64,000 nucleotides of DNA from Podospora anserina (GCA_017654855.1 CM030332.1:7564001-7628000), one strand, 5' to 3'; shown: positions 37,526-50,747, counted from the stretch's first letter. Numbers and translations are program-made. The notes: a model not told the origin generated them from the letters alone.

Positions 37526-38446
37526 ATGCAGACCACACGAGTCCTCCGCTACAAAGGCTTCTGGGGCCGAAGCATGGACGAGCTCAAACGTCTTTCCAAC
37601 ATCGGTACCTAACCCCCTCCAACCTCCCCACTCCCACATCATCACTAACCTCCCCTCCTTCCCCCGAACCCAGCCATAAAAATGGAAGGTGTCACCGGCC
37701 CCCAAGGTCCCCGCGAACTCTTCGACTTCCGCACCCCCTCCTCCATCGAAGACTGCAAAGTCATGTCCGACGACGAAATCGGCGGCCTCTCCACCTCCCA
37801 CCTCGACTGGATCGTCGCCCCCCCAGCCGGCTCTGTCCCCGCCTCCCAGCTCCCATCGCCCAACTCCCCCGGCTACGCCAAATTCTACGGCAACATCTCC
37901 ACCCACCTCCCAGCCGACCGACCAGATATCAAACGAACGGGGTATGCCGCGTTTCGAACACAAGACCGGCCGCGTAATCTCTTTACCAGAGGACTGTGGG
38001 ACATCGATCCGTACATCTACCTCGCATTGCGAGTCAAATCAGACGGGAGGAGTTACTTTGTCAATGTGCAGACAGAATCGATTGTACCGACGGATCTACA
38101 TCAGCACAGGTTGTTTGTCAAGAAGCCGGGGGAGTGGGAGACGGTGTTGATCAAGTGGAACAATTTCGTCAGGACGAACCACGGGTTTGTGGTAGAGCCG
38201 CAGACGGAGATCTTGAGGCAAAAGGTCAAGAGTATTGGGGTGGGGTTGACGGATAGGATACCGGGGCCGTTTGAGCTTTGTATTGAGAGGATGTGGGCGA
38301 CGAATGACGAGAGCGATGCGGATCAGGTGGTGGATGCTTCTGCTGCCGTTGCTGCGCCGGAACAGGAGGCGCCGGTGGTGGAGACGAAACAGGAGGGGGA
38401 TTTGAAGACGAAGAGGGGGGAGAAGGTTGCTTGGGGGAGTCGGTAG
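37526..38446 (+). CDS. CIA30: Complex I intermediate-associated protein 30 (NDUFAF1 family); intron 37605-37673
   Basis: KGFWGRSMDELKRL, MSDDEIGGLS, FYGNIS..LP, RTGYAAFRT, YLALRVKSDGRSYFVNVQTES..TDLHQHRL, GPFELCIERMWA. Confidence 0.93.
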
Positions 38447-38885
38447 TGTGTGCTGAGAGAAGAGGGGGATGTGAGATGGCGATAAGAGATGTGTAAATAT
38501 ACTGAATTTGTCATGGGCACAGTATGGAGAATGGGAACGGGCAAAAAGCTGATTCTACCAAATTAAGGGAACATGAAGGCAGTGTGAGACGAGAACGGCT
38601 CGGTTCATATGTTGACTGACATGTACATAAAAATCTCGAGCCAGCACTTCGCAAGACGAATATGCACTTTCCGATCTTGCCATCCGAAGTCAAATGTCAT
38701 GTCGGGTATCATCAATCTCGTCGATTATTCATAGCCACTTCCCAATGAAGCCTTTCTACACAAGATACAAACAAGAAATCATCGCCTTTGCTCCATGCAA
38801 CCAACTGATTCCTCCAAAACAAATCAGATTTGGCCTCACCCAAACGCCGTCCAGTATATGCAGAACCTCGATGCGCAAAAAAACA

Positions 38886-39150
38886 CACAAGAAAAGCACA
38901 AGAAAAGCACAAGAAAAGCACAAGAAAAGCACAAGAAAAGCACAAGAAAAGCACAAGAAAAGCACAAGAAAAGCACAAGAAAAGCACAAGAAAAGCACAA
39001 GAAAAGCACAAGAAAAGCACAAGAAAAGCACAAGAAAAGCACAAGAAAAGCACAAGAAAAGCACAAGAAAAGCACAAGAAAAGAAGAAGAAAAAAAGAAG
39101 AAAAGAAAAAAAAGAAAAAAGAAAAGAAAAAAGAAAAGAAAAAAGAAAAC
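38886..39150. repeat. Perfect 11-bp tandem repeat (CACAAGAAAAG) x18 (38886-39083) followed by an A/G-rich tract
   Basis: Counted directly. Confidence 0.97.
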
Positions 39151-39207
39151 ACGCAGAAACCCCGCTACCGTGCACTCGTCGTGTTCAAAGCCCCATGACC
39201 ACACCCG

Positions 39208-40508
39208 TTACTCCAAATCCATATCCGAATTGCTGTGGCTCTTCCCCCTATCCCATTCCCTCTGCTCACCCTTCTTGGTGTACTTGACCGAGTCAAACAT
39301 ATCCTTTTCACTTTCCTTGCCACCCCTTTCCCACTTTTTGATCTGTTCCTCTGTGAACCCGGCAGCCCGCAGTCTGTCAGCACCCTGTTGCTTCCACTTC
39401 TGCCTGTCCCGGAACAACTCCACAGCCGAGTCCCAGGTGTTGCTGCTGGACGTGTCCTGCTTAAGGATGTCATCCAGCGGCACATCGTTCTTCGGATCGT
39501 AGTCCTCCGCAAACCGGCTATCCATCGCCGCGGCGCCCCTTCTAGGAGCACCGGCGCCTCTTCCTCGGACACGAACTGGCGGCTCCGACGTTTGAGAGGG
39601 AGGTGCTGGGCCTATCAGCTCGTCCAGGGGATCGGAGTCCTCTTCGTCCACATGGCGATGCGGCCTGGAATGCCGACTGGACCGTGATTGATCTTTCTCG
39701 TCACGCTCGTCATGTTCGTGTCGCCTATGTGAATGAGAGCCACGGTCTCTACCGTCCTTCCCTGACCTCCTTCCATGCGGCCTGGAGTGATGGCGATGGC
39801 TGTCCTCCGGCTCGCTGCTGAGGGGGGAGCGATCCCGGTGTCGTCGCTCTCTGCGTTCTCTGTGCCCAGGAGAGCGGGACCGTGACCTTTCGTGCCGTCG
39901 GTGATGTGAGCGCTTTGTGTCGTCGTCAACCCTTCGGTGGGACCGTTCGAGATCTTTCTCGTCGCCATGCTTGGACTCGCGACTCTGGGAAGGCTCAGTC
40001 TTGGTTGAGGCCGAGTGGCGGTCTTTTCTGTCACTCTTCCTTTCCTTGGTGCTGTCTCGATCGCTTTTGGTATGGCTACTCTCGCCTCCTTTGCGACCCT
40101 GCAAAATGGAAGATATAGCCCCAAGTTGGCGGCGCCGAATGTCAGACTTGGTGGGGTTGAGTCGCTGTCGCTTCCTCTCTTCGACCGCGGTATGGTGGTT
40201 GAGCCGGGCTTGGGCTTCAGCGGCTTCCTTTGCAAGGAGGGCCTTGTTGTGATTCGCAGTCTCCTTTATTATGCGCCCGAGAAAATTGGTATTGGGCTTC
40301 GCCTTGTTCGCCGGCCTGGTCGTTGGGCGTACGGTCAGCATGGGTGGTCCTGATGAGATGGCCATGACGATGGAGGTTGCGGTGAAACATACTTGGAAGA
40401 TCGGAAAGCTTCGAGACCGACTGACGAGTATTTGATGGAGGCATCGCTGGCTTCCTTTGCCAACAAGCCCGCCACATAGTCATCTGTGAGTAAGGTATCG
40501 TTTGCCAT
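39208..40508 (-). CDS. Conserved fungal R/H/S/D-rich nuclear protein (often annotated splicing-factor 38B-like); 1 intron
   Basis: MANDTLLTDDYVAGLLAKEA..KYS..G, KPNTNFLGRIIKET..HN.ALL, DPLDELIGPAPP, MDSRFAEDYDPKND, GADRLRAAGF, REWDRGK. Confidence 0.8.
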
Positions 40509-41394
40509 GTTTGCCGTGTGTTCAACCTTTCCAGAATGCGAAAAGCTGACGAAGGCCATCCATCAGAGTGGGAAGGAAATAAAGAATAGAGGGCGCAAAC
40601 CCTAACAAAACAGCATTACTGATGAAGAGTAAGGCGGAAGGGAATTTTGAGGTGGTCGGTTGGCGGAGCAGGTTGCTGAGCCTCCTCGCGCATTGGGAGT
40701 TCACTGGGTGGTGTGTGCCAGACCGATCAGTTGCGGCTCAGCCAGTTGTGATCCTTATCAGGCACTTATCGCATATATCTCGTTTATCTTATCAGTCCTG
40801 CCTTGGCAACGGCATCAAACATCGTTTCTTATGCAACACCCCTTCAACCACCAGCTTTGATTTGGCCCTCTGGCCTATAAACAATGGAAGATATGTGAAA
40901 AATGAACATACACTCTTGCTATCTTACAAATGCCATCTCATCAATCCCCAGGCAAAACCGAACAGGGGTTTGAAACTCAGGTTCAATGGAACGTACTGTC
41001 ATAGCCCTGCTAAACTTGAACTGCAGGTAGGTAGCATCAGGGGACCTGTGATGCGAGGCGAATCGCCCACAAAGGTCCAGCAGCAGCGGCAACTCTGAGA
41101 ACTCTGTTTGCGGAACAAGAGAACAAACCCCAGATTCTCCAACAAAGCATGCATCGATTTCTTGATCAATGGATTGCTGCCATCGAGAACCAAAAGGTTC
41201 ATGGTCAAAGACACTTGCCCCACCTCGCACGCACTAGCTAAAGCTGAACCCCCTCTGGCCTGTCTACTGCCCAGCCCCTCAATTAGCCCCAAGACCCCAG
41301 CCAAAGTGCCAAAGGGCAGCGGGCAGCCAGCACCAGCACGGGCCAGTGCAGTAGCAAAGCAATCAAGCCATTCCATCCACAATTCTCCAGCTTG

Positions 41395-44300
41395 ATGAAT
41401 GGAGCAGTGCACCAGACTGTGAAGACGACAATGGCCGCCGTGCAGCTCGAGGCCGACGCGATCGGCGGCGAGCTGCGCCTGATCCGAGATGCTCTGAGAG
41501 ACTATCTCGACGATAAGATCCTTCTGCACAACCGCAAAGTCAAAGGCCCGACAACGAAAGGCGGACGGGAGTTTATGGAAGACATCTTGGGCCGTCTCGA
41601 TCGAGTGTCCACAGGTGTCGATAAGCAGCTCTCATCACACAACACGCCTCCGCCAGCCAGAGGCCCCGATACTCCGGTATCTTACAACTCACCAGCTTCC
41701 CATCCAGTTTTGCCACCGAACGGGCTACCAGATGATGGACCGCTGAGAAACCAGGAACAGGCATCCTCACGACAGCCTTCACAACCTCTCGCGCCATCAC
41801 TATCGCAACCCCTCCCGCCTCAGACCAATGGGAGCGGCAGCCTCGCTCCTGTCCACCATGCGGGACACCCATCTGGAGCCTCACGGGTACTCGAACCTCC
41901 GGCTGTGTCGGTGGAAGTACCCTCTAAGCCGAATACACCACCGACCCATAACTCAGAGCCTGCATCACCATCACCTGCCTTGGCCAATCAGCATCCTCAT
42001 CAGTCACAACAGCCACAGCCAGATTTCACCCCTCGGAGTCCATTGAGCCCTCAAAGTCAGACGGAGAGTAAGGATCAAGGTCAGACTGAGACACAGTCGC
42101 GAGGCAAAGCTCAGGCCAGCAAGAGTCAGACGCCACAGGACCGAGGCATCACGTTGTCAAACGGAGCCGTCTATCATGAACCCATCGTACAGCCACACGA
42201 GGCCTCACCCCTCTTTGACTGCATGTACCAGGATGTCAACGACTTGAACGAGGAGCTCTTCGAACAGTACTCAAATCACCCCGTCGTCAAGGACAGGGGG
42301 TATTTCAAGCTCCAGGTCAGGGAGTTGCCTCCGCTCCAGGTACGAAAGGTTGAGCGCCCGAGCAAAGACCACGCAACCTCGTTCCGCTATCTGGCCGACA
42401 AGCAGGGACTAGTCAAGGTCGACACGGGCAAGAAGAAACGGTTCACGCCTCCGCATCTTCCATTTCCTGTTTCGGCAAAGACGCAGTGGACTTTACAGGA
42501 ACAAAAGGAGCTCTGGAACACCTCGGCGGCGAACCCTCCCAAGGGCACACGGGGTTACATCATTGGCAACCCGCTGTTCGATGACATCGAGCTCCATCCT
42601 GGCAACAGGCTCAAATCGAGAGGCCGGACCATTCTCGAAGGCATCAACACACAATATGTGTACTTCAATTTGGAAGGACTAACTATCACCACTATGCATC
42701 GAGAAGATGCCCATGTGAGGTCGGAGAATCTCCTCCGGTCAGGCCAGCACAAGTTCTGGTGCTTTGTCAAGCCAGCCTTCTCAGACAGGTTGGAGGAGAG
42801 GATGGCGGCCGCGTATCCCGAGATGCGCCGATGCTCGCAGGCCGTCCGTCATCTCAGTCGCCACATCCCACCAGCCAAACTGGATGAATGGGGCATCGAG
42901 TACACTCTCGATTACTGCATCCCCGGCCAAGCGGTGGTCACAGAACCTGGGACGTACCATCAGGTACTGAACCTGGGTCCGAACTATGCTCTGGCGGTCA
43001 ATGTTGAGTACATGTCATCCCCCGAGGACCCTCCGAACTACCGTTTCTGCGACAGGAACTGCCCCGATCCGTTTGCCATGAAGGCTACCGACTTTGGCAT
43101 ATACGGTGATCCCAATTGCCTGGCGGCGCAGGAGGAACAAGCCAGGCTCTCTGGAGAGAGGCCAGACCAAGAGGAACAGGCCAGGATGGCAGCACGGTCG
43201 TCCATGTTTCAGTCTGCCCCAGAGCAGCCGTCACCACCATCTCAATCACCCCTAGCTGCACCCCAGCTGACGCAATCTGTCACCCCGCCGCCAGAGCATA
43301 GCTCCTCTGCCGTCTGTGAGCCATCTCAATCCGGCTTGGTGCGGCCGGAAGCACTTGTACAACGCCGCGAGCCGTCAAGCCAGCCGTTGGCGGAGCCCAA
43401 GCTACATACGTTTCAAGGTTTCCAGCCTCCGCGAGAGAGCAGTCTCGGCTCGGTCCTTCGGTTACCGTCAGAGGCGGGGATGGTGACTCCGTCTCAAACG
43501 GTTAAGCAACCCGACCCATCGCCACAGCCCCCAGCGGCCCCGCCGCCGGTAGCCGTTGAACCTGCCACAAGGACATCGGAGCCACGTCGATCACAACCTC
43601 CATCCGAACCAGCTCCTGGGTGGGATAATGCCGTGTTCCGCGCAGAACAACAAGACCTGGCACCTCGCTCACAGCTCCTGCGCCATCCAAACACTTTCCT
43701 AGACGCCTCTGCACAACCCTTCCAGACCACCCATCAGGCTGCCCCTTTCTCACATCATCATAACCTCCCTTTGCTCCCTCCACCGCGACAAGCAAGCTCA
43801 GAGCCGCTTCGGAAAACCGCAAGGCTTGTTCATAACAGAAGATCTGCACCGACGGAACCGCTATCCCCTCGCTCGGCAAAGAGACAGCGCGTGATGGAGT
43901 ACTTGCGTTTTGAGGATCCCTTCGGGGTAGATCCAGAGCCAGAGATGCCTCCGAGCTACTTCACTCATGCCAGTTCAAGTCTTGCAACGCTACTTCGCTC
44001 ATGTCAAGATGACGTGTACAACAACATTCAGTCGCAGCAGGTGTCTGGAAGACCTGGCTTTGACCGGCTGGCGCGGCTCATCAGTGACTGGAGACGTTGT
44101 GTGCGAGAACAGAACCCGACGCCGTCGGGCTTAGACCTTGTCACCAACCTCGACCGCGTTGCCGGGGAGGAGCCTGAGCTGAACACGTTCCTTGGTCGGT
44201 TCTGCAAAATGAAGCTCGCAGAATGGCTCGATGCCAAAGCTGAAGAGCAGGAACGAGCTAGGCCGGCCTTCCAGCCGGCACAGCAAGATGCTACTGATCT

Positions 44301-45201
44301 CTTGCTCCAGGAGCTTGGCTGGGCCGAAGCTGAGAGGCACACGCTGAACGACTACATCCGAGAGGGCAAGTGCTGGAAGACAATCTGCGGAGCCTACGGC
44401 GGCCTTCTCTGCGTCATTCCACCCGATCCAGCCTTTCAGCAGCTGGCTCTCTTTCAGGACCAGGTGCTGATGTTTCACCATCAGCTCAACGACCCGTTCC
44501 TTCGCGCTATGTGCGCCGTGGGCAAGACCCTACAAGGCTGCATCTGGGAGAGCCGCGAACTGCCCGCCTTTGTTTTCGAGTCTGAAGACACCATTGCCCT
44601 CTCGACCGAGGAGCTGGGGCCGATGCTCAAGCAGTACAAATACATTACGGCCAACGTCTTCAACCCTCATGCGCCATACGAATGGCCAAAGCCAGTGGGC
44701 TGGAAGGCGTCCTGGCAGTGGCCGGTGGACCCGACAGCTGTGCTCCATGAGAAGTGGTGCAACGTCTGTAAGAAGAAGAAGTCATGTCGTTGTCACGCCA
44801 GGTTTGTACCAGCCATCCCACGGGTGTCGATTGACGGGAGCAAGGGCAGCGGGGTGCGTGTTATGGGAATGTTTAGAGCTAATGACATCATCGGCGAGAT
44901 GTTGGGCGAGCTGGTGCCTCCCGGAGCGATCCCTAATCGGGAGTGGACGATGGAGTTTCGGCGTCCGGATCTTGACGATGTTGTCGTGGCTGAGCTCTAC
45001 TCCAAGGAGCAGGGCAACTGGGCGCGGGTTGTGAGGCATTCCGCCCATCCTTCCTGCGAGATTTCCATCAGGAAGATGGAAGGCAAGTGGAGGATGCTGA
45101 TTGTTGCCAGCAGGCAGCTGTTTGACGGTGAAGAGATAACTGTCAAGTACGGTCGTGGGTATCACAGGAACCAGGCCTATGGCATTGTTGAAGGGTTCTG
45201 A
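41395..45201 (+). CDS. JmjN/JmjC (KDM4-like) + SET domain fusion protein
   Basis: Single intronless ORF of ~1270 aa: EGINTQYVYF..TTMHRED..GQHKFW..YHQVLNLGPNYALAVN, then C-terminal WCNVC..CRC, GSGV..IGEMLGEL, GNWARVVRHSAHPSC, GEEITVKYG. Confidence 0.85.
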   Translation: MNGAVHQTVKTTMAAVQLEADAIGGELRLIRDALRDYLDDKILLHNRKVKGPTTKGGREFMEDILGRLDRVSTGVDKQLSSHNTPPPARGPDTPVSYNSPASHPVLPPNGLPDDGPLRNQEQASSRQPSQPLAPSLSQPLPPQTNGSGSLAPVHHAGHPSGASRVLEPPAVSVEVPSKPNTPPTHNSEPASPSPALANQHPHQSQQPQPDFTPRSPLSPQSQTESKDQGQTETQSRGKAQASKSQTPQDRGITLSNGAVYHEPIVQPHEASPLFDCMYQDVNDLNEELFEQYSNHPVVKDRGYFKLQVRELPPLQVRKVERPSKDHATSFRYLADKQGLVKVDTGKKKRFTPPHLPFPVSAKTQWTLQEQKELWNTSAANPPKGTRGYIIGNPLFDDIELHPGNRLKSRGRTILEGINTQYVYFNLEGLTITTMHREDAHVRSENLLRSGQHKFWCFVKPAFSDRLEERMAAAYPEMRRCSQAVRHLSRHIPPAKLDEWGIEYTLDYCIPGQAVVTEPGTYHQVLNLGPNYALAVNVEYMSSPEDPPNYRFCDRNCPDPFAMKATDFGIYGDPNCLAAQEEQARLSGERPDQEEQARMAARSSMFQSAPEQPSPPSQSPLAAPQLTQSVTPPPEHSSSAVCEPSQSGLVRPEALVQRREPSSQPLAEPKLHTFQGFQPPRESSLGSVLRLPSEAGMVTPSQTVKQPDPSPQPPAAPPPVAVEPATRTSEPRRSQPPSEPAPGWDNAVFRAEQQDLAPRSQLLRHPNTFLDASAQPFQTTHQAAPFSHHHNLPLLPPPRQASSEPLRKTARLVHNRRSAPTEPLSPRSAKRQRVMEYLRFEDPFGVDPEPEMPPSYFTHASSSLATLLRSCQDDVYNNIQSQQVSGRPGFDRLARLISDWRRCVREQNPTPSGLDLVTNLDRVAGEEPELNTFLGRFCKMKLAEWLDAKAEEQERARPAFQPAQQDATDLLLQELGWAEAERHTLNDYIREGKCWKTICGAYGGLLCVIPPDPAFQQLALFQDQVLMFHHQLNDPFLRAMCAVGKTLQGCIWESRELPAFVFESEDTIALSTEELGPMLKQYKYITANVFNPHAPYEWPKPVGWKASWQWPVDPTAVLHEKWCNVCKKKKSCRCHARFVPAIPRVSIDGSKGSGVRVMGMFRANDIIGEMLGELVPPGAIPNREWTMEFRRPDLDDVVVAELYSKEQGNWARVVRHSAHPSCEISIRKMEGKWRMLIVASRQLFDGEEITVKYGRGYHRNQAYGIVEGF

Positions 45202-45957
45202 GCGCGGTTTTTTAACATTTGTCAGGGACATGTTATGGTCAACAACATCAAAGGCGTGAGTGTATAAAAGGTCTAGGATTGGGAACAAGGGCGGTGGTGG
45301 AAGCGGAGTAGCGGTGTCGTTTGTGTGGCTTTTCTTTCCGTGTTCGTATCCTTCGCGCATAATACTTTCAGGGGGTCGTTTTTATCTGCAAGAAAGGGAA
45401 GGAATGGGATTGGTGGATGGGTTTTCTGCCGGAAGGGTTGTAGGCGGGCAATTGCTTTGCTACACTGTATTTGTTTCTGCTTGCTTGTCGTTCACCGGCA
45501 CATACACGACTTTGCATTGTCTTCTCGTTGCTTTTGTTACAGTTGCTGCTGCTCTGTCATGGCTACGTAACATAAAAAGACAGGTGATGTTTTGGGGGAG
45601 GGGGGGGGTTATTTATGGGTTTCCTTACGGGTCATATGTAGGTAGTTATGGGTTAGGTTCGGAAGCGCTAGGTAACGAGGTATTATGTTAGTATCCAGCG
45701 CTTGTCTTTCTGTTTGTTCTCAGGAGGAGGAAGGCAGTGAACATAATTTTGGAACTCCGTGTCTAGACTTGCATCACCACACGCAACCATCAAGGGACTC
45801 GCTCTATTTTGTCCACAAGTTTCTTCCTCCAAGCCATCAGGCAAACCTCACGCAAGCCACCAAGCCACCAAGCCACTCGGTCCATCCACCAGTCCTTCTC
45901 ACCGCACAACGACCGGACCACTTCCGACGGAGAGAGCCGTTCGGATTGTGAGCTATC

Positions 45958-45992
45958 ACATACATACATACATACATACATACATACATACA
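45958..45992. repeat. (TACA)n microsatellite
   Basis: About 8 perfect copies. Confidence 0.95.
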
Positions 45993-46154
45993 ATGCAGCC
46001 CATCGAGATTTTGGGAGGTGCGAGGGGAACACATTAATTGTCTCCGGGCCAGGAGATGTAACAAGGGGCATCATGTTTCAGCGGGGACCTTGTCATGACG
46101 GTAGGTGTGATTTACTACGTATTAGGGGTCAATCGGTTTTGTGGAGGAGAAAGA

Positions 46155-46325
46155 AAAGTTCCATTGCGAGGGGGGGAAAAAAAGGAAAAAAAAAAAGGAA
46201 AAAAAAAGAGGAAAAAAAAAAGGAAAGAAAAAAAGGAAAGAAAAAAAAGAGAGAAAAAAAGGAAGGAAAAAAAGAGAAAGAAAAAAAGAAGAAAAAGAAA
46301 AAGAGAAAAAGAAAGAAAGAAACGC
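46155..46325. repeat. A/G-only low-complexity tract
   Basis: About 160 bp of essentially only purines. Confidence 0.9.
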
Positions 46326-46663
46326 CTAAACTACCTAACCTAGTGTGTCATTTTGCCATTGCTTCTTGTCCCTAGAAGAATTTGCCCCTGTTGTTTTACC
46401 TGATTGCAATTCCGGTGACCCTCCGCTTGAGAAAAGGAAACACCATTTATTTTTAATTTTTTTGGTTAAACCGAACAGAAAGGAAGTTAAAGGGAGGGGG
46501 GTAAAGAGATGTCGAGCATGAGGGGGGTGGGTTGTGTGCATGTTGGGGGATATATTTTTTGTCTGGTTGCTGATATGTGCTGTGTGCGGAGAGGTTCGGG
46601 CATCGGAAGGCTATGTATGTCAAAGTGTCTCATAAAGACTGACTTTGGACGTGCGTGGGCTCT

Positions 46664-47973
46664 CTACATGGTCTGCTCGCAACGGTGTCAGAGGATAAGC
46701 AAAGGTGGATGTGATCGAGAAAGTAAGCCTACCTGAGAATGCTGAACCTGCTGCTGCTGTTGAGCAGCCTGGAACATCCCGGCATAAGCCATCTGAAATT
46801 GCTGCTGCTGGTATACCCATTGCGCATGAGCCTGTGCCTGGGCTTGAGCCTGGGCAGCTTCGTTCGATGCCGGTTGTTGTGCCTGAGGACCATAGTAGGC
46901 CGGCATCTGCGGGAATCCCCAGTATGGCATACCGGCTACCATACCAGGCTGGACGGGCTGGAAGTACGGCTGAGGAATGGATGGGACGGCGTAGAGATGC
47001 GGTTGAGACCAGGCTGCTTGTTGTAGTTGAAAAGCTGCTTGGGCTTCTAGAGAGATAGGGCTTTGTTGTTGTTGTTGTTGTTGTTGTTGTTGCTGCTGCG
47101 GGTGCGACCAGGCTTGTAGATGACCTTGAAGTGCTTGTTGGGAATAATACCCCGAGTGGGCTGGTTGAGGTTGTGCCGCATGAGCTACTTGAGGCTGCCC
47201 ATGATACAGGGCAACTTGAGCCTGGTGCCCCCAGGTTGCTGTCATCGAGGTGACTGGCTGTTGTTGGGGGTTCAGTTGCGCCTGAAGGTGCTGGTGTTGG
47301 GGGTGTTGCTGCGGTTGTGGCTGTCCCATCCAGCTGACTACCCCATACGGCCCCGGCTGCATCATGGCCCCGGCATTGCGAGGAGCTGCTGCGGCTTGGT
47401 ACCCCCAAGCTGCTGACTCCAACGTGTGGTTACGTGCCGGGGCCGGCACACCAGGGGGTTTATTGAGAGCCAGCGCATCTTCGTGGGTAACGATCAAGAC
47501 CCGATCACGGTCGAACGGCTTGACTATCTGCACGGCTCCTGTGCCACCAATTCTGTATCCAGGGTCATCGACCTTGATGGGACGACCCCTGTAGTGAGTA
47601 ATTGCCAGCCATCCTGCCCGAAACTGGTCAGCATGCGTTCTCTTTCTCGGCTCAACAGGAGAGGCCTTACTCTTGCAATTCTCGAACTGGCTAAAGCCGA
47701 CAATCCGCACCCAGCCCTTGTTCTTCTGTTCGCCCTGGATGCCAACAAAGACCTCTGACTTCTTATGAAGTAGAGAAAACACAAAGTTACGAAATTCTCG
47801 AGCGTCGGTTTGGTCAGGCAGCTTTCAAAAGTCAGTTAGGATTCGCATCGAAAGGGTGGCCAAGAAGAAAGAAGACTTGCATTAGAAACGAGAATGTAGA
47901 AAGGTCCACCAGCCGGGTCACCGGCTCGAACCCATACCGGAGGGGGATCAGCTGGAGGAGAAGAGATTGCCAT
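46664..47973 (-). CDS. Divergent RRM + Q/aromatic-rich prion-like domain protein; GC-AG intron 47880-47822, intron 47670-47614, short last intron
   Basis: Spliced: ...PFYILVSN-LPDQTDAREFRNFV..KNKGWVRIVG..FENCK-RWLAITHYRGRPIKVD, followed by a polyQ/Y/W/P-rich tail. Confidence 0.7.
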
Positions 47974-49814
47974 TGCGGGACCAAAACAGGCAGATATCAC
48001 CAGCAAAAAAGTGCGAACAAAGACTACAGCGAGAGAGAAGATGGAGGAGACAGGTCCTGGGCAGTCGGCCCTTCCCCCAACTTTTAGTACTCGACCCTCA
48101 TACAGGGTGGTCCCTAGGGCAAACTGAGACAAACTGTAGTGCGCAGCAAGCCACAACTCTGGAGCAGTCGGACTCGATTCCCCAAAATGACTTTCTTTTT
48201 TCTGTGACTTGCTCGCATGGGGGTGGTGGGGTCGGGTGTGTGGTCTTTGATATGGACCGTGCTTCTCGAGACAGAGGGTGGGGGGCGTCCAAGTGATCCC
48301 CCAATTGGATCTTCCCCCACAACCTTTTCTTCCCTGGCTGATCTGGCGGATCGACGCTTCCACTACTAGAAACGACTAGCCTGGCAATGTCGAGCTAGAC
48401 TTCTAATGATGGGGTCCAAACTCGGCACGACTCTCAAAAAGCAAACAAAGTGTGTCAAGCCTCTCCTACCAGAGCCTGCGGGTTTCTCTCCCCCAAGTCT
48501 GCTCCTGTTCAAACGAGAGAACGAGAGAGGCAAGCAACCCTGGAACCACCCAACTCCTCACAGCCGTGTTCGATGTGAGTGATCGAAGTGGCTGGCTACA
48601 GAATCCAATCAAGGTCGAGTCCTTGCTGCAGTTCTAGCCAAGCAGAGACACCAGCAGCCAACGGCATGACAAAGCTTCTGTCCAAGGAAGCGGGGTATTC
48701 CCAAACCGGGCACGGCCAGAGAGGCGGCTGACCAGTTTTGATTCAAGGTTTGCTTCTTCTCTCTGGGCTGAGTAGAACCCCGCGCTGGTTTGCAGCATGT
48801 GTTGTCGAGCAGCATGTATTGTCGAATTTCTTTTGTATTCCGAGCGCGCAAGAACCGGTGGTTGGGACGGAGAGTAGGATCCGACTTTGGGTAGCGAACT
48901 TGCCTGTCCTGCATCTGTGGGCCGCTGGCGGTCAGCAGAAGGGGGCCCGGGCTACGTGATAGGGTTCCAATATCTAATCTCATCGTGCAGATGGGACGCT
49001 GGATCGTCGACGGGCAGGAAGAGGATCAGTCCCCGCAAATGCCAAACTCGGTGACACTTGCATACGGATGTCAGTGAGCCGTCGAAGCTTTTTTTTCTTT
49101 CTGACTCTGGCTCAACAATCTATCCGACCGCGGGTGAAGCTTCCGATCCCTTGCCGGTTGTCGACATGTTAGGGCAGCCTAAAAGAACACAAGATGGGAT
49201 TGCCTTGCTTGTTCGAGTATGCCAGGATGACCAGTCACATTCTCCCTCCACAGTGCATGATGGCTATTGTTTTGCTGCATGCTTTCCAGCTGCCGGGCTT
49301 GCTATCAGTGTTTGCAGGCAGCAGCGGGAGATGTCTGAGGTCTCGCTGAGTTGGCGTCGAGGTCCTTCGCATTCGCCCTTGCTTCGTATCTATTTTCTGA
49401 CAATTTTTTTTTTTTTTTTGGAATGTTGTCTTGGTACAGAAACTAAGACAAAAAAGGGGGCGTGTTGTACAAAGCCCAAAGCTGATGGATGACATTGCAC
49501 AACAGGTGGAAGATCTCACGTGGGAAGTTTTCTGAAATTCCGAGGTGGATTTCCAAGAGGAATGAATATCAGGGTTAGGGTCTGGCACTGCTGCCCCGCG
49601 CTAACACCTTTTGGGGTTTAATGTCAACAGATTGCCGGCCGCGCGCTTTCGAGAGCGCATCGCGCACCTTCATGGCCAGCGCAACTCTCGAACAGAAGAC
49701 AACCACCAACCCTTTTGCAAAAAACACGACGGGACAAATTCGTTTTTTTTTTATTTTTTTGATTTTTTTTTACCAGAGATATCAGAATTTTAACAATTAC
49801 TCAAGGCCGCAAAA

Positions 49815-50747
49815 ATGGGCCGCGCCAAATCCCCAACCAAAGCGTCACCCCAATCGCTCACCCACCGCGCCAACCACGCCCTCACCCAACTCCAATCCCT
49901 CGTTCCCTCGGCCTCCTCAGCCTCGGATGAAGAATCCCCCATAACCATCATCCGCCTCTCCGCCCCGATAATCTCGTCCGCTTCTTCGTCCGAGACCCCG
50001 TCAGCAGCCCGCACCTCCGACATCTCCAACACCTCCCTCCCCCCCTCGGGCCCAACCCCCTCCTCCCTCGAAGCCGACCTCCTCCACTACAAAGAACTCT
50101 TCTCCAAACTCCGCTTCTCCTACGTCGAGCAGGTCACCAAAGAAAAGTTCATACGCGCCATCGTCGGCGACCCGCCCTTGATCGTCACGCCCCAGGAAAA
50201 CGCCGAGCTGGAAGACAGCAACAAGGTTGCCAAGGCGGAGCTGAAGGCTCTCAAGAATGAGGTGGCGGACATGGTCAAGGATCTGGAGGCGAGGGGGCGG
50301 GAGCTGGCAAAACGTTACGAGAGGGTCAAGACGGAGACTGTCCGGCTAGGGGAGCTGCCGGGACGAGTGGAGGGGTTGGAAAGGGAGATTGCGAGGTTGA
50401 AGGAGGAGCAGCAGGTTGGGGAGGGATCGAGGGCAGAGCTGAATTTGCCGCTGGCGAAGACGCTGCAGCTTGTGGGCGAGAAAAAGAGGCAGATGCAGGA
50501 GTTGGATAGGCAGTTGGAGCAGCTGAGAAATCAGGCTCCACGGAAGAGGAAGGAGGTGGAGCGGTTGCAAGGAGAGGTGGCCGGGCTGGAGCAGAAGAGG
50601 GGGAATGCGATGGCGGCGGCGAAAGAAGCGAAGAGAAGGAGGGAGGATAAGGGGGCCAGGAACGGGGTTGATGAGCTGGAGGCAAGGGGACGGTGGTATA
50701 GGGGGAGCGAGGCTGTTTTGAGGGGGTTGCTGGGGATTCAGGGGTGA
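49815..50747 (+). CDS. Kinetochore Sos7 (Kre28/Spc105-complex)-like coiled-coil protein
   Basis: LEADLLHYKELFSKLRFSYVEQVTKEKFIRAIVGDPP, long coiled coil, ELEARGRWY. Confidence 0.85.
   Translation: MGRAKSPTKASPQSLTHRANHALTQLQSLVPSASSASDEESPITIIRLSAPIISSASSSETPSAARTSDISNTSLPPSGPTPSSLEADLLHYKELFSKLRFSYVEQVTKEKFIRAIVGDPPLIVTPQENAELEDSNKVAKAELKALKNEVADMVKDLEARGRELAKRYERVKTETVRLGELPGRVEGLEREIARLKEEQQVGEGSRAELNLPLAKTLQLVGEKKRQMQELDRQLEQLRNQAPRKRKEVERLQGEVAGLEQKRGNAMAAAKEAKRRREDKGARNGVDELEARGRWYRGSEAVLRGLLGIQG

Follow-up and report, generated by a model that had tools for sequence, protein, structure and literature searches.

A Podospora anserina ortholog of Neurospora SET-8 that joins a KDM4-type JmjC domain to a putative pseudo-SET domain

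When one protein carries both a JmjC domain of the eraser type and a writer-like SET domain, are both halves enzymes? The question is raised by a gene in a stretch of 64,000 nucleotides from Podospora anserina (GCA_017654855.1 CM030332.1:7564001-7628000), referred to here as the window, to which all positions refer. Its plus strand holds, at 41395..45201, a single unbroken and intron-less reading frame of 1268 amino acids plus stop. Judged by its sequence, the gene is orthologous to Neurospora crassa SET-8 (NCU01973, XP_964337), and it is a real, conserved member of a family described in 2008 and hence already known. The reading we favour, to which we give a probability of roughly 0.55, is that the product is an active demethylase with a conserved and probably non-catalytic pseudo-SET domain.

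For the study of chromatin cross-talk, a protein that couples an eraser with a writer-like domain makes an appealing natural experiment. Specialists will not be surprised that such a JmjC-SET protein exists, because the architecture has been in print since 2008. What is new here is an eraser half that appears to carry every hallmark of an active KDM4-type enzyme, an ASH1/NSD/SET2-like origin of the writer half together with its stand-alone relatives, a clade-specific decay of the SET cofactor site while other fused members keep full catalytic sets, and a helical domain that is predicted to form a single confident fold unit with the SET domain. Close orthologs were compared in an alignment of 79 sequences, the query and 78 homologs, built with FFT-NS-2, and the wider family was represented by 150 proteins.

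The eraser half

A Pfam scan of the 1268-residue protein, reported to E ≤ 10, matched JmjC and SET only. The JmjC domain (PF02373, E 8e-16, 59 bits against a cut-off of 24) spans residues 429–537 at 42679..43005, and the SET domain (PF00856, E 9.4e-11, 42.5 bits against a cut-off of 22.4) spans residues 1151–1253 at 44845..45153. An earlier note on this sequence had proposed Pfam and AlphaFold for each half; Pfam placed both above cut-off, and AlphaFold2 (AF2) gave a good model of the C-terminal 389 residues and a poor one of the JmjC half.

The closest solved relatives of the JmjC half are KDM4D, 4B, 4A and 4C (E 2e-13 to 3e-11, and 1e-15 with the family profile), Rph1 and KDM5 being much weaker matches. 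The motifs that the earlier note took for an apparently complete Fe(II)/2-oxoglutarate set were well chosen, as HRED (H435, E437), HKFW (K453) and YHQ (H522) all fall on matching positions in the alignment to KDM4D and 2w2i. By this alignment the Fe(II) ligands are H435, E437 and H522, the 2-oxoglutarate contacts are K453 and N445, and the methyl-lysine pocket is lined by G416, Y421, Y423 and N536 (motif EGINTQYVYF). These JmjC residues we take to be equivalent to numbered residues of KDM4A.

Conservation of the site is close to complete. H435, E437 and K453 occur in 78 of the 79 sequences, the remaining row being gapped, and H522 occurs in all 79; N445, Y423 and the pocket residues of EGINTQYVYF are kept in every aligned ortholog (78–79/79). 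The catalytic residues are also largely kept in 49 fused representatives from other classes. A KDM4-type zinc site (42832..43062) consists of C480, H486, C552 and C556, each present in 79/79 sequences; C480 and H486 fall on the corresponding Cys and His in the KDM4D alignment, and C552 and C556 are matched to the KDM4 zinc cysteines by position, as the printed KDM4D alignment ends at residue 537. Conservation in the protein peaks in the JmjC block, where three close species are 97, 96 and 95% identical, compared with 65–82% in the linkers.

With the catalytic residues kept and conservation highest in this block, the oxygenase is expected to be active, and the JmjC half is most likely a catalytically active KDM4-type Fe(II)/2-oxoglutarate oxygenase. 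By analogy with KDM4 enzymes, its substrate would be di- or tri-methyl-lysine on histone H3, at K9 and/or K36.

The SET module and its catalytic state

The C-terminal 389 residues (880–1268) were modelled with a predicted local distance difference test score (pLDDT) of 91.3 and a predicted template modelling score of 0.85. In this model a helical domain (residues 881–1117, 44035..44745) is packed on the SET domain; helices are predicted at 885–1080, pLDDT is mostly above 85, and the last eight residues have low pLDDT. The helical domain and the SET domain are thus predicted to fold as one confident unit. The helical domain belongs to no known family: structure-search matches spanned only model residues 177–389, none falling on the helical part, and an Atlas search with residues 881–1120 gave no usable match. 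Between the helices and the SET domain lies an AWS-like pre-SET cluster, C1122-x2-C1125-x5-C1131-x-C1133 (44758..44793), whose four cysteines are invariant in 79/79 orthologs and present in 143–144 of the 150 wider-family proteins. A prediction of the complex between the JmjC core and the C-terminal unit scored 0.00 and, being without controls, is uninformative in either direction.

Where does this module come from? Foldseek with the C-terminal unit returned ASH1L first (E 1e-8), followed by NSD, SETD2 and EZH, and the VIA all-against-all structural search returned NSD2 (Z 12.8), Set2 (Z 12.5), EZH2 (Z 12.4), ATXR5 (Z 12.1) and MLL5 (Z 10.1). A sequence search found ASH1L at E 1e-6, and a profile search ranked ASH1L (6.6e-11) and NSD1 (5e-10) ahead of NSD3, NSD2, EZH2 and Set2. 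In the profile search, NSD and ASH1L align from their pre-SET region onwards, and Pfam AWS is unmatched at E ≤ 10. From the Foldseek, VIA and profile matches, the SET domain is nearest to the H3K36-type AWS-SET enzymes (ASH1L, NSD, SET2), a soft subfamily assignment since EZH2, ATXR5 and SUVH6 tie within 1 Z unit.

The same module also exists without a JmjC domain. Stand-alone relatives share the helical domain, the Cys cluster and the SET domain; they include a 396-residue protein of Podospora appendiculata, marked partial, which matches residues 12–378 of the 389-residue unit (P0104), and in the same cluster a stand-alone helical and SET protein of 410 residues from Cercophora scortea (P0231). 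By Pfam, 74 distant representatives matching the C-terminal unit divide into 25 with JmjC and SET, 42 with SET only, 3 with JmjC only and 4 with neither. Stand-alone proteins of this kind are probably the source of the module fused to JmjC, and in our reading the C-terminal unit descends from an ASH1/NSD/SET2-like methyltransferase module that exists alone too.

The residues expected of an active SET domain are a different matter. Set against ASH1L, EYLGE reads EMLGE, RFINHSC reads RVVRHSA and ELTYDY reads EEITVKY, and this alignment agrees with the residues first read from the sequence: Asn replaced by Arg and Cys by Ala in the NHxC motif (here R1214-H1215-S-A1217), the C-terminal Tyr kept, and no post-SET. 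Across the 79 orthologs the Asn position is occupied by N in 30, R in 20, T in 5, K in 5, P, H, C and S in 4 each and G in 2, with one gap, which makes it the ninth most variable of 108 SET positions, flanked by the near-invariant V1213 and H1215. The Cys of NHxC is found in 0/79 close orthologs and the motif II Tyr (Met1169 here) is replaced by Leu, Met or Ala in 79/79. A post-SET motif, CxCx(2-6)C, occurs in 0/79 close orthologs compared with 106/149 wider-family proteins, the query being omitted from the 150 for this count. In the wider family the NHxC Asn is present in 126/150 and the Cys in 107/150, and Arg occupies the Asn position in 5/150. By these counts, the post-SET zinc site has disappeared, and the Asn has ceased to be constrained, specifically in the Podospora/Neurospora clade. 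Arg at that position is not a reliable family feature, because it is found in only 20/79 close orthologs and 5/150 wider representatives. The SET domain as a whole nevertheless appears to stay under purifying selection, with identities of 93, 90 and 84% to three close species against 65–82% in the linkers.

Because neither the post-SET zinc cluster nor the NHxC Cys survives in the clade, and the Asn there is free to vary, a demethylase with a non-methylating SET domain is the most likely explanation. In this mechanism the KDM4-type core (JmjN-like segment, JmjC and zinc site) would remove di- or tri-methyl marks from H3 K9 and/or K36. The degenerate SET domain, whose parent module recognises the H3K36 region of nucleosomes, would no longer methylate; it would instead bind the histone tail or nucleosome and so target or regulate the demethylase. 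We infer this binding, targeting or regulatory role. Of the alternatives offered by the earlier note, an eraser-writer and a demethylase with a pseudo-SET, both are still live, and the comparative data lean to a pseudo-SET in this lineage.

Several observations weigh against a non-catalytic SET domain beside an active demethylase. The GxG motif is retained (G1151-S-G1153, GWG in ASH1L), with G1151 in 75/79 and G1153 in 77/79 orthologs; H1215 is kept in 78/79, and E1168 and G1171 are kept in 79/79. The C-terminal Tyr Y1252, which corresponds to the last Tyr of ELTYDY in ASH1L, is Tyr in 66/79 (otherwise F in 7, C in 2, H in 2, R in 1 and G in 1), and Asn itself persists at the NHxC position in 30/79. 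The C-terminal tail, residues 1254–1268 (GRGY...VEGF, 45154..45198), stands in place of the post-SET Cys motif and is conserved in the clade (G1253 in 79/79 and G1255 in 78/79, among others), so this clade-specific tail could substitute for post-SET. Activity is known from some SET or PR domains that lack a canonical NHxC or post-SET, and the variability argument is built on protein alignments of related species rather than at codon level. On the eraser side, the model of the JmjC half (residues 255–600, from a 40-row alignment) reached a pLDDT of 54.4, and the pocket geometry is read from the sequence alignment only. The Pfam JmjN profile, moreover, is unmatched in the 1268-residue protein at E ≤ 10 and finds a match in 0/40 homologs at E ≤ 1. 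The JmjN-like segment of the earlier note (residues 273–310, 42211..42324, including FEQY..DRGYFKL) is present as a motif and is a strongly conserved block (0.69), and it shows strand-helix-strand elements at pLDDT 71–79 within a model that is poor overall. With Pfam JmjN unmatched, the JmjN-like label for residues 288–305 draws on that conservation and on the low-confidence model, and segment 273–310 is possibly a divergent JmjN.

These points lead to the strongest rival, a true single-chain eraser-writer in which both halves are catalytic. Here the KDM4-like half would erase (for example H3K9me3/H3K36me3) and the SET half would write (for example H3K36me1/2) on the same nucleosome, with a non-canonical S-adenosylmethionine pocket completed by the clade-specific C-terminal tail. 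It is favoured by a SET fold that is confidently predicted and under purifying selection, by the retention of GxG, H1215, Y1252, E1168 and G1171, and by nearest SET relatives that are active H3K36 methyltransferases. In addition, 8/47 fused representatives carry the full set of GxG, NHxC, Tyr and post-SET, and at least five of these eight also have the complete JmjC set, which makes an ancestral bifunctional enzyme plausible. The same residues that define the pseudo-SET argue the other way for the Podospora protein, which has Arg at the Asn position: in its clade the Asn is hypervariable, and the NHxC Cys, the post-SET motif and the motif II Tyr are each absent in 79/79. The full canonical set is also rarer in fused proteins (8/47) than in representatives without JmjC (46/102; Fisher p about 0.001), in a test that ignores relatedness, excludes the query, includes three proteins classed otherwise by Pfam and may count some fragments as "stand-alone". 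We regard an eraser-writer as a tentative second choice for this protein, clearly less probable than an active demethylase with a pseudo-SET.

A bolder form of the idea takes JmjC-SET proteins in general as "mark converters", in which a KDM4-type domain erases H3K9/H3K36 tri-methylation and an ASH1/NSD-like SET domain writes another state on the same tail. At least 5/47 fused proteins, those with both catalytic sets, would do so, and the SET-8 proteins of Podospora and Neurospora would do so through a non-canonical pocket closed by the tail; we think this rather unlikely. The fused relatives that keep both catalytic sets are the best place to seek a genuine eraser-writer, and the contrast between canonical and decayed fused members offers a testable case of enzymes turning into non-catalytic reader or regulatory domains.

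A non-enzymatic scaffold resembling Epe1 or DMM-1 would sit on chromatin as an adaptor and use its JmjC and SET folds solely to bind partners or histone tails, which would fit the degenerate look of the SET half. This reading is at odds with the eraser half, where Fe(II), 2-oxoglutarate and methyl-lysine pocket residues are kept in 78–79/79 orthologs and largely in the 49 fused representatives of other classes; one would not expect a full catalytic set to persist over such a distance in a pure scaffold, which we consider improbable.

Gene, family and surroundings

That adjacent JmjC and SET genes are read through by chance, or that this is a decaying pseudogene, is suggested by the 320 poorly conserved residues between the conserved halves and was rejected as very improbable on an open frame of 3.8 kb, a fused architecture in 74/78 homologs and three other orders, single jointless contigs bridging the frame in three studies, and purifying selection on both halves.

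The open reading frame (ORF) had been described as single and uninterrupted, and it is (41395..45201, +, 1268 residues). Bounded by stop codons, the frame extends from 41287. Translation may instead begin at M13 (41431), the residue from which the N-terminus of the ortholog consensus aligns; the lengths of two kinds of cluster member, 1256 and 1254 residues, agree with a start 12–14 codons downstream. Annotated orthologs of 1268 residues cover 100% of the ORF.

Contigs from four public runs, presumed by guess to be RNA and none of them recorded as RNA, were placed on 40400–46000. In three of the four, a single jointless contig covers the whole ORF, each from a different study: 40943..45584 in X1, which takes in the ORF with its flanks and looks transcript-like, 41088–45949 in X2 and 41101–45222 in X5. 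The depth of these contigs is 77–102, compared with 2–35 for flanking contigs, an unevenness that resembles transcript data. Given that the RNA nature of the runs is a guess, cover by a single contig gives slight support to one transcript. On the evidence as a whole, the SET-8 ortholog is one intron-less gene encoding one chromatin protein. Run X5 also yielded a contig of 1093 bases at a depth of 1113, which is common to the window only over the 30 bases 45193–45222 and then continues in unlike sequence; this is probably a short word shared with an abundant unrelated transcript or repeat.

A protein-collection search recovered 78 homologs of similar length, of which 74 carry both Pfam domains, so the fusion is far beyond chance; this also answers the question, raised earlier, of whether the architecture is conserved in Sordariales orthologs. 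The best match is a 1268-residue protein of Podospora comata, 99% identical over 100% of the query, and cluster members from other Podospora species have locus tags ending in _120460. N. crassa SET-8 (P0070, XP_964337), which a published passage equates with NCU01973, matches at E 3.1e-236 (805 bits) and has both domains. Beyond Sordariales, fused proteins occur in Fonsecaea (Chaetothyriales), Thyridium (Thyridiales), Tricladium (Helotiales), Cadophora and Mollisiaceae. All named fused homologs belong to the Pezizomycotina (Sordariales, Thyridiales, Helotiales, Chaetothyriales), unnamed metagenome proteins being unplaced, and among the named ones the JmjC-SET family is restricted to these filamentous ascomycetes.

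The earlier note had called this an undescribed system unless the architecture already belonged to a characterised family. The claim fails because the architecture is already in print. Passages of Veerappan, Avramova and Moriyama 2008 (PMC2474616) describe a "JmjC-SET" family confined to filamentous fungi: N. crassa and A. fumigatus have one gene each and M. grisea has two, whereas F. graminearum yielded none. The supplements enter XP_964337 as "JMJC SET", within the SET-JMJC group. According to these authors the catalytic motif carries Arg substitutions and activity "has not been demonstrated"; from the Arg substitution they suggest that the SET domain "might not be active as a histone methyltransferase". 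A table in Iyer et al. 2010 (PMC2938197) gives SET as a fusion partner of JMJD2/KDM4, and a passage of a 2022 survey (PMC9692433) sets JmjC-SET genes aside as ungroupable. A literature search that covered the likely sources incompletely found no functional study of SET-8, NCU01973, Pa_1_20460 or a JmjC-SET fusion; as far as this search shows, the family has been catalogued without functional characterisation. Knock-out strains of the Neurospora ortholog exist, and published passages report the use of single-gene deletion mutants.

Two groups of relatives depart from the simple fusion. A protein of 1058 residues from a 4352-base Logan contig (P0145) has a Sir2 deacetylase domain (E 6e-19) ahead of JmjC and SET; it represents a fusion of three chromatin enzymes or else a gene model in which neighbours were merged. 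The fused proteins P0235, P0237-P0241, P0243 and P0245 (named members: Tricladium, Cadophora, Mollisiaceae) bear, as a precomputed match, a third Pfam family, PF28402.1, and this group has Cys at the catalytic Tyr position (EITAFCG).

The remaining parts of the protein, all on the plus strand, are less conserved or lack an assigned domain. An N-terminal segment, residues 1–80 (41395..41634), has no Pfam match and a mean identity to the query of 0.34–0.40 among the 79 homologs, compared with 0.12–0.24 in linker 1. The two linkers rich in Pro, Ser and Gln, residues 81–265 (41635..42189) and 561–880 (43075..44034), are poorly conserved, linker 1 showing 11–20% identity and many gaps in comparisons with distant orthologs. 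The earlier description of a Pro/Ser/Gln-rich linker, a helical domain, a Cys cluster (WCNVC..CRC) and then SET thus proved accurate throughout. Linker 2 holds a basic patch, RKTAR..KR..K(K/R)QR, at residues 806–833 (43810–43893), which is conserved in the ortholog consensus and looks like a nuclear localisation signal, suggesting a nuclear role.

The gene is flanked by a CIA30 complex I assembly factor at 37649–38446 (+, Pfam E 2.9e-40) and a Sos7 kinetochore protein at 49794–50747 (+, Pfam E 2.7e-33). On the minus strand at 39208–40365, divergent from the SET-8 ortholog, lies an ORF of 385 residues with Arg/Ser/His/Asp repeats (SR/RS-like, HRRHERSRSRSPGHRERRERRHRDRS) and no Pfam match, which may encode a splicing- or RNA-related low-complexity protein. 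An ORF at 46688–47824 (−) is rich in Gln, Pro and Ala, includes a run of 11 Gln and likewise has no Pfam match. These neighbours (CIA30, the Arg/Ser/His-rich ORF, the Gln-rich ORF and Sos7) have unrelated functions and, in a eukaryote, give no functional clue.

Repeats are also present. Directly downstream of the SET-8 ortholog, 45767–46375 (+), and especially 46073–46375, is a purine-rich simple repeat that reads as a Lys/Glu/Arg-rich "ORF" (KKGKKKRKKKEEKKK...) and is probably non-coding low-complexity DNA, not a gene; repeats were also flagged at 45950–46000. A repeat of at least 100 letters, with short words found more than 12 times in the stretch, lies at 38886–39083, in or beside overlapping low-complexity ORFs at 38631–39502.

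Comparison with known systems

One comparison is with SET3, SET4 and MLL5, which share with the Podospora protein an Arg in place of the NH-motif Asn. According to a passage of PMC2474616, yeast SET3 reads RRSCQPN and is without activity, and the same source grouped the SET domain of JmjC-SET with SET3/4, without bootstrap support. The MLL5 SET domain does superpose (Z 10.1, root-mean-square deviation 2.5, 101 residues), below NSD2 at Z 12.8. The differences are that the Podospora protein has no PHD finger by Pfam, that it retains the His, and that its Arg is lineage-specific and not a hallmark. No SET3 or MLL5 chain was found among the sequence matches at E ≤ 0.01 or among the best 60 profile matches. 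The kinship with SET3/4 proposed in 2008 is therefore unsupported, as sequence, profile and structure searches all lie nearest to ASH1L, NSD and SET2.

ASH1L, NSD1-3 and SET2 are the closest SET relatives by sequence, Foldseek and VIA, and the Cys-rich pre-SET aligns with their AWS region. The Podospora module differs from them in having no post-SET, in reading RHSA for NHSC and EMLGE for EYxGE, in leaving Pfam AWS unmatched, and in a SET domain that is preceded by a helical domain of about 235 residues without a structural match.

For the eraser half, the comparison was with human KDM4A-D, yeast Rph1, A. nidulans KdmA and M. oryzae MoJMJD2. The likeness lies in the HxE...H triad, the 2-oxoglutarate Lys and Asn, and the EGINTxYxYF pocket motif. 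In a passage of Iyer et al. (PMC2938197), the JMJD2/KDM4 signature is HxE together with a Zn cluster formed by a Cys and a His between strands 4 and 5 and two Cys after strand 8, a pattern to which C480, H486, C552 and C556 conform. In contrast to the KDM4/JMJD2 proteins, Pfam JmjN is unmatched here, and there is no PHD or Tudor domain; a SET module is present instead. A published passage on M. oryzae describes MoJMJD2 with JmjN, JmjC and PHD, and the fungus also has two JmjC-SET genes according to a passage of PMC2474616. Because M. oryzae has both, JmjC-SET is a lineage separate from canonical fungal KDM4, at least in that species.

The nearest known system is N. crassa SET-8 itself, which has the same order of parts: an N-terminal JmjC, a long linker, a helical domain, a Cys cluster and a C-terminal SET without post-SET. 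It also has Arg at the position of the NHxC Asn. There is no essential difference between the two proteins, the lengths of 1268 residues in Podospora and 1442 in N. crassa differing owing to the linkers.

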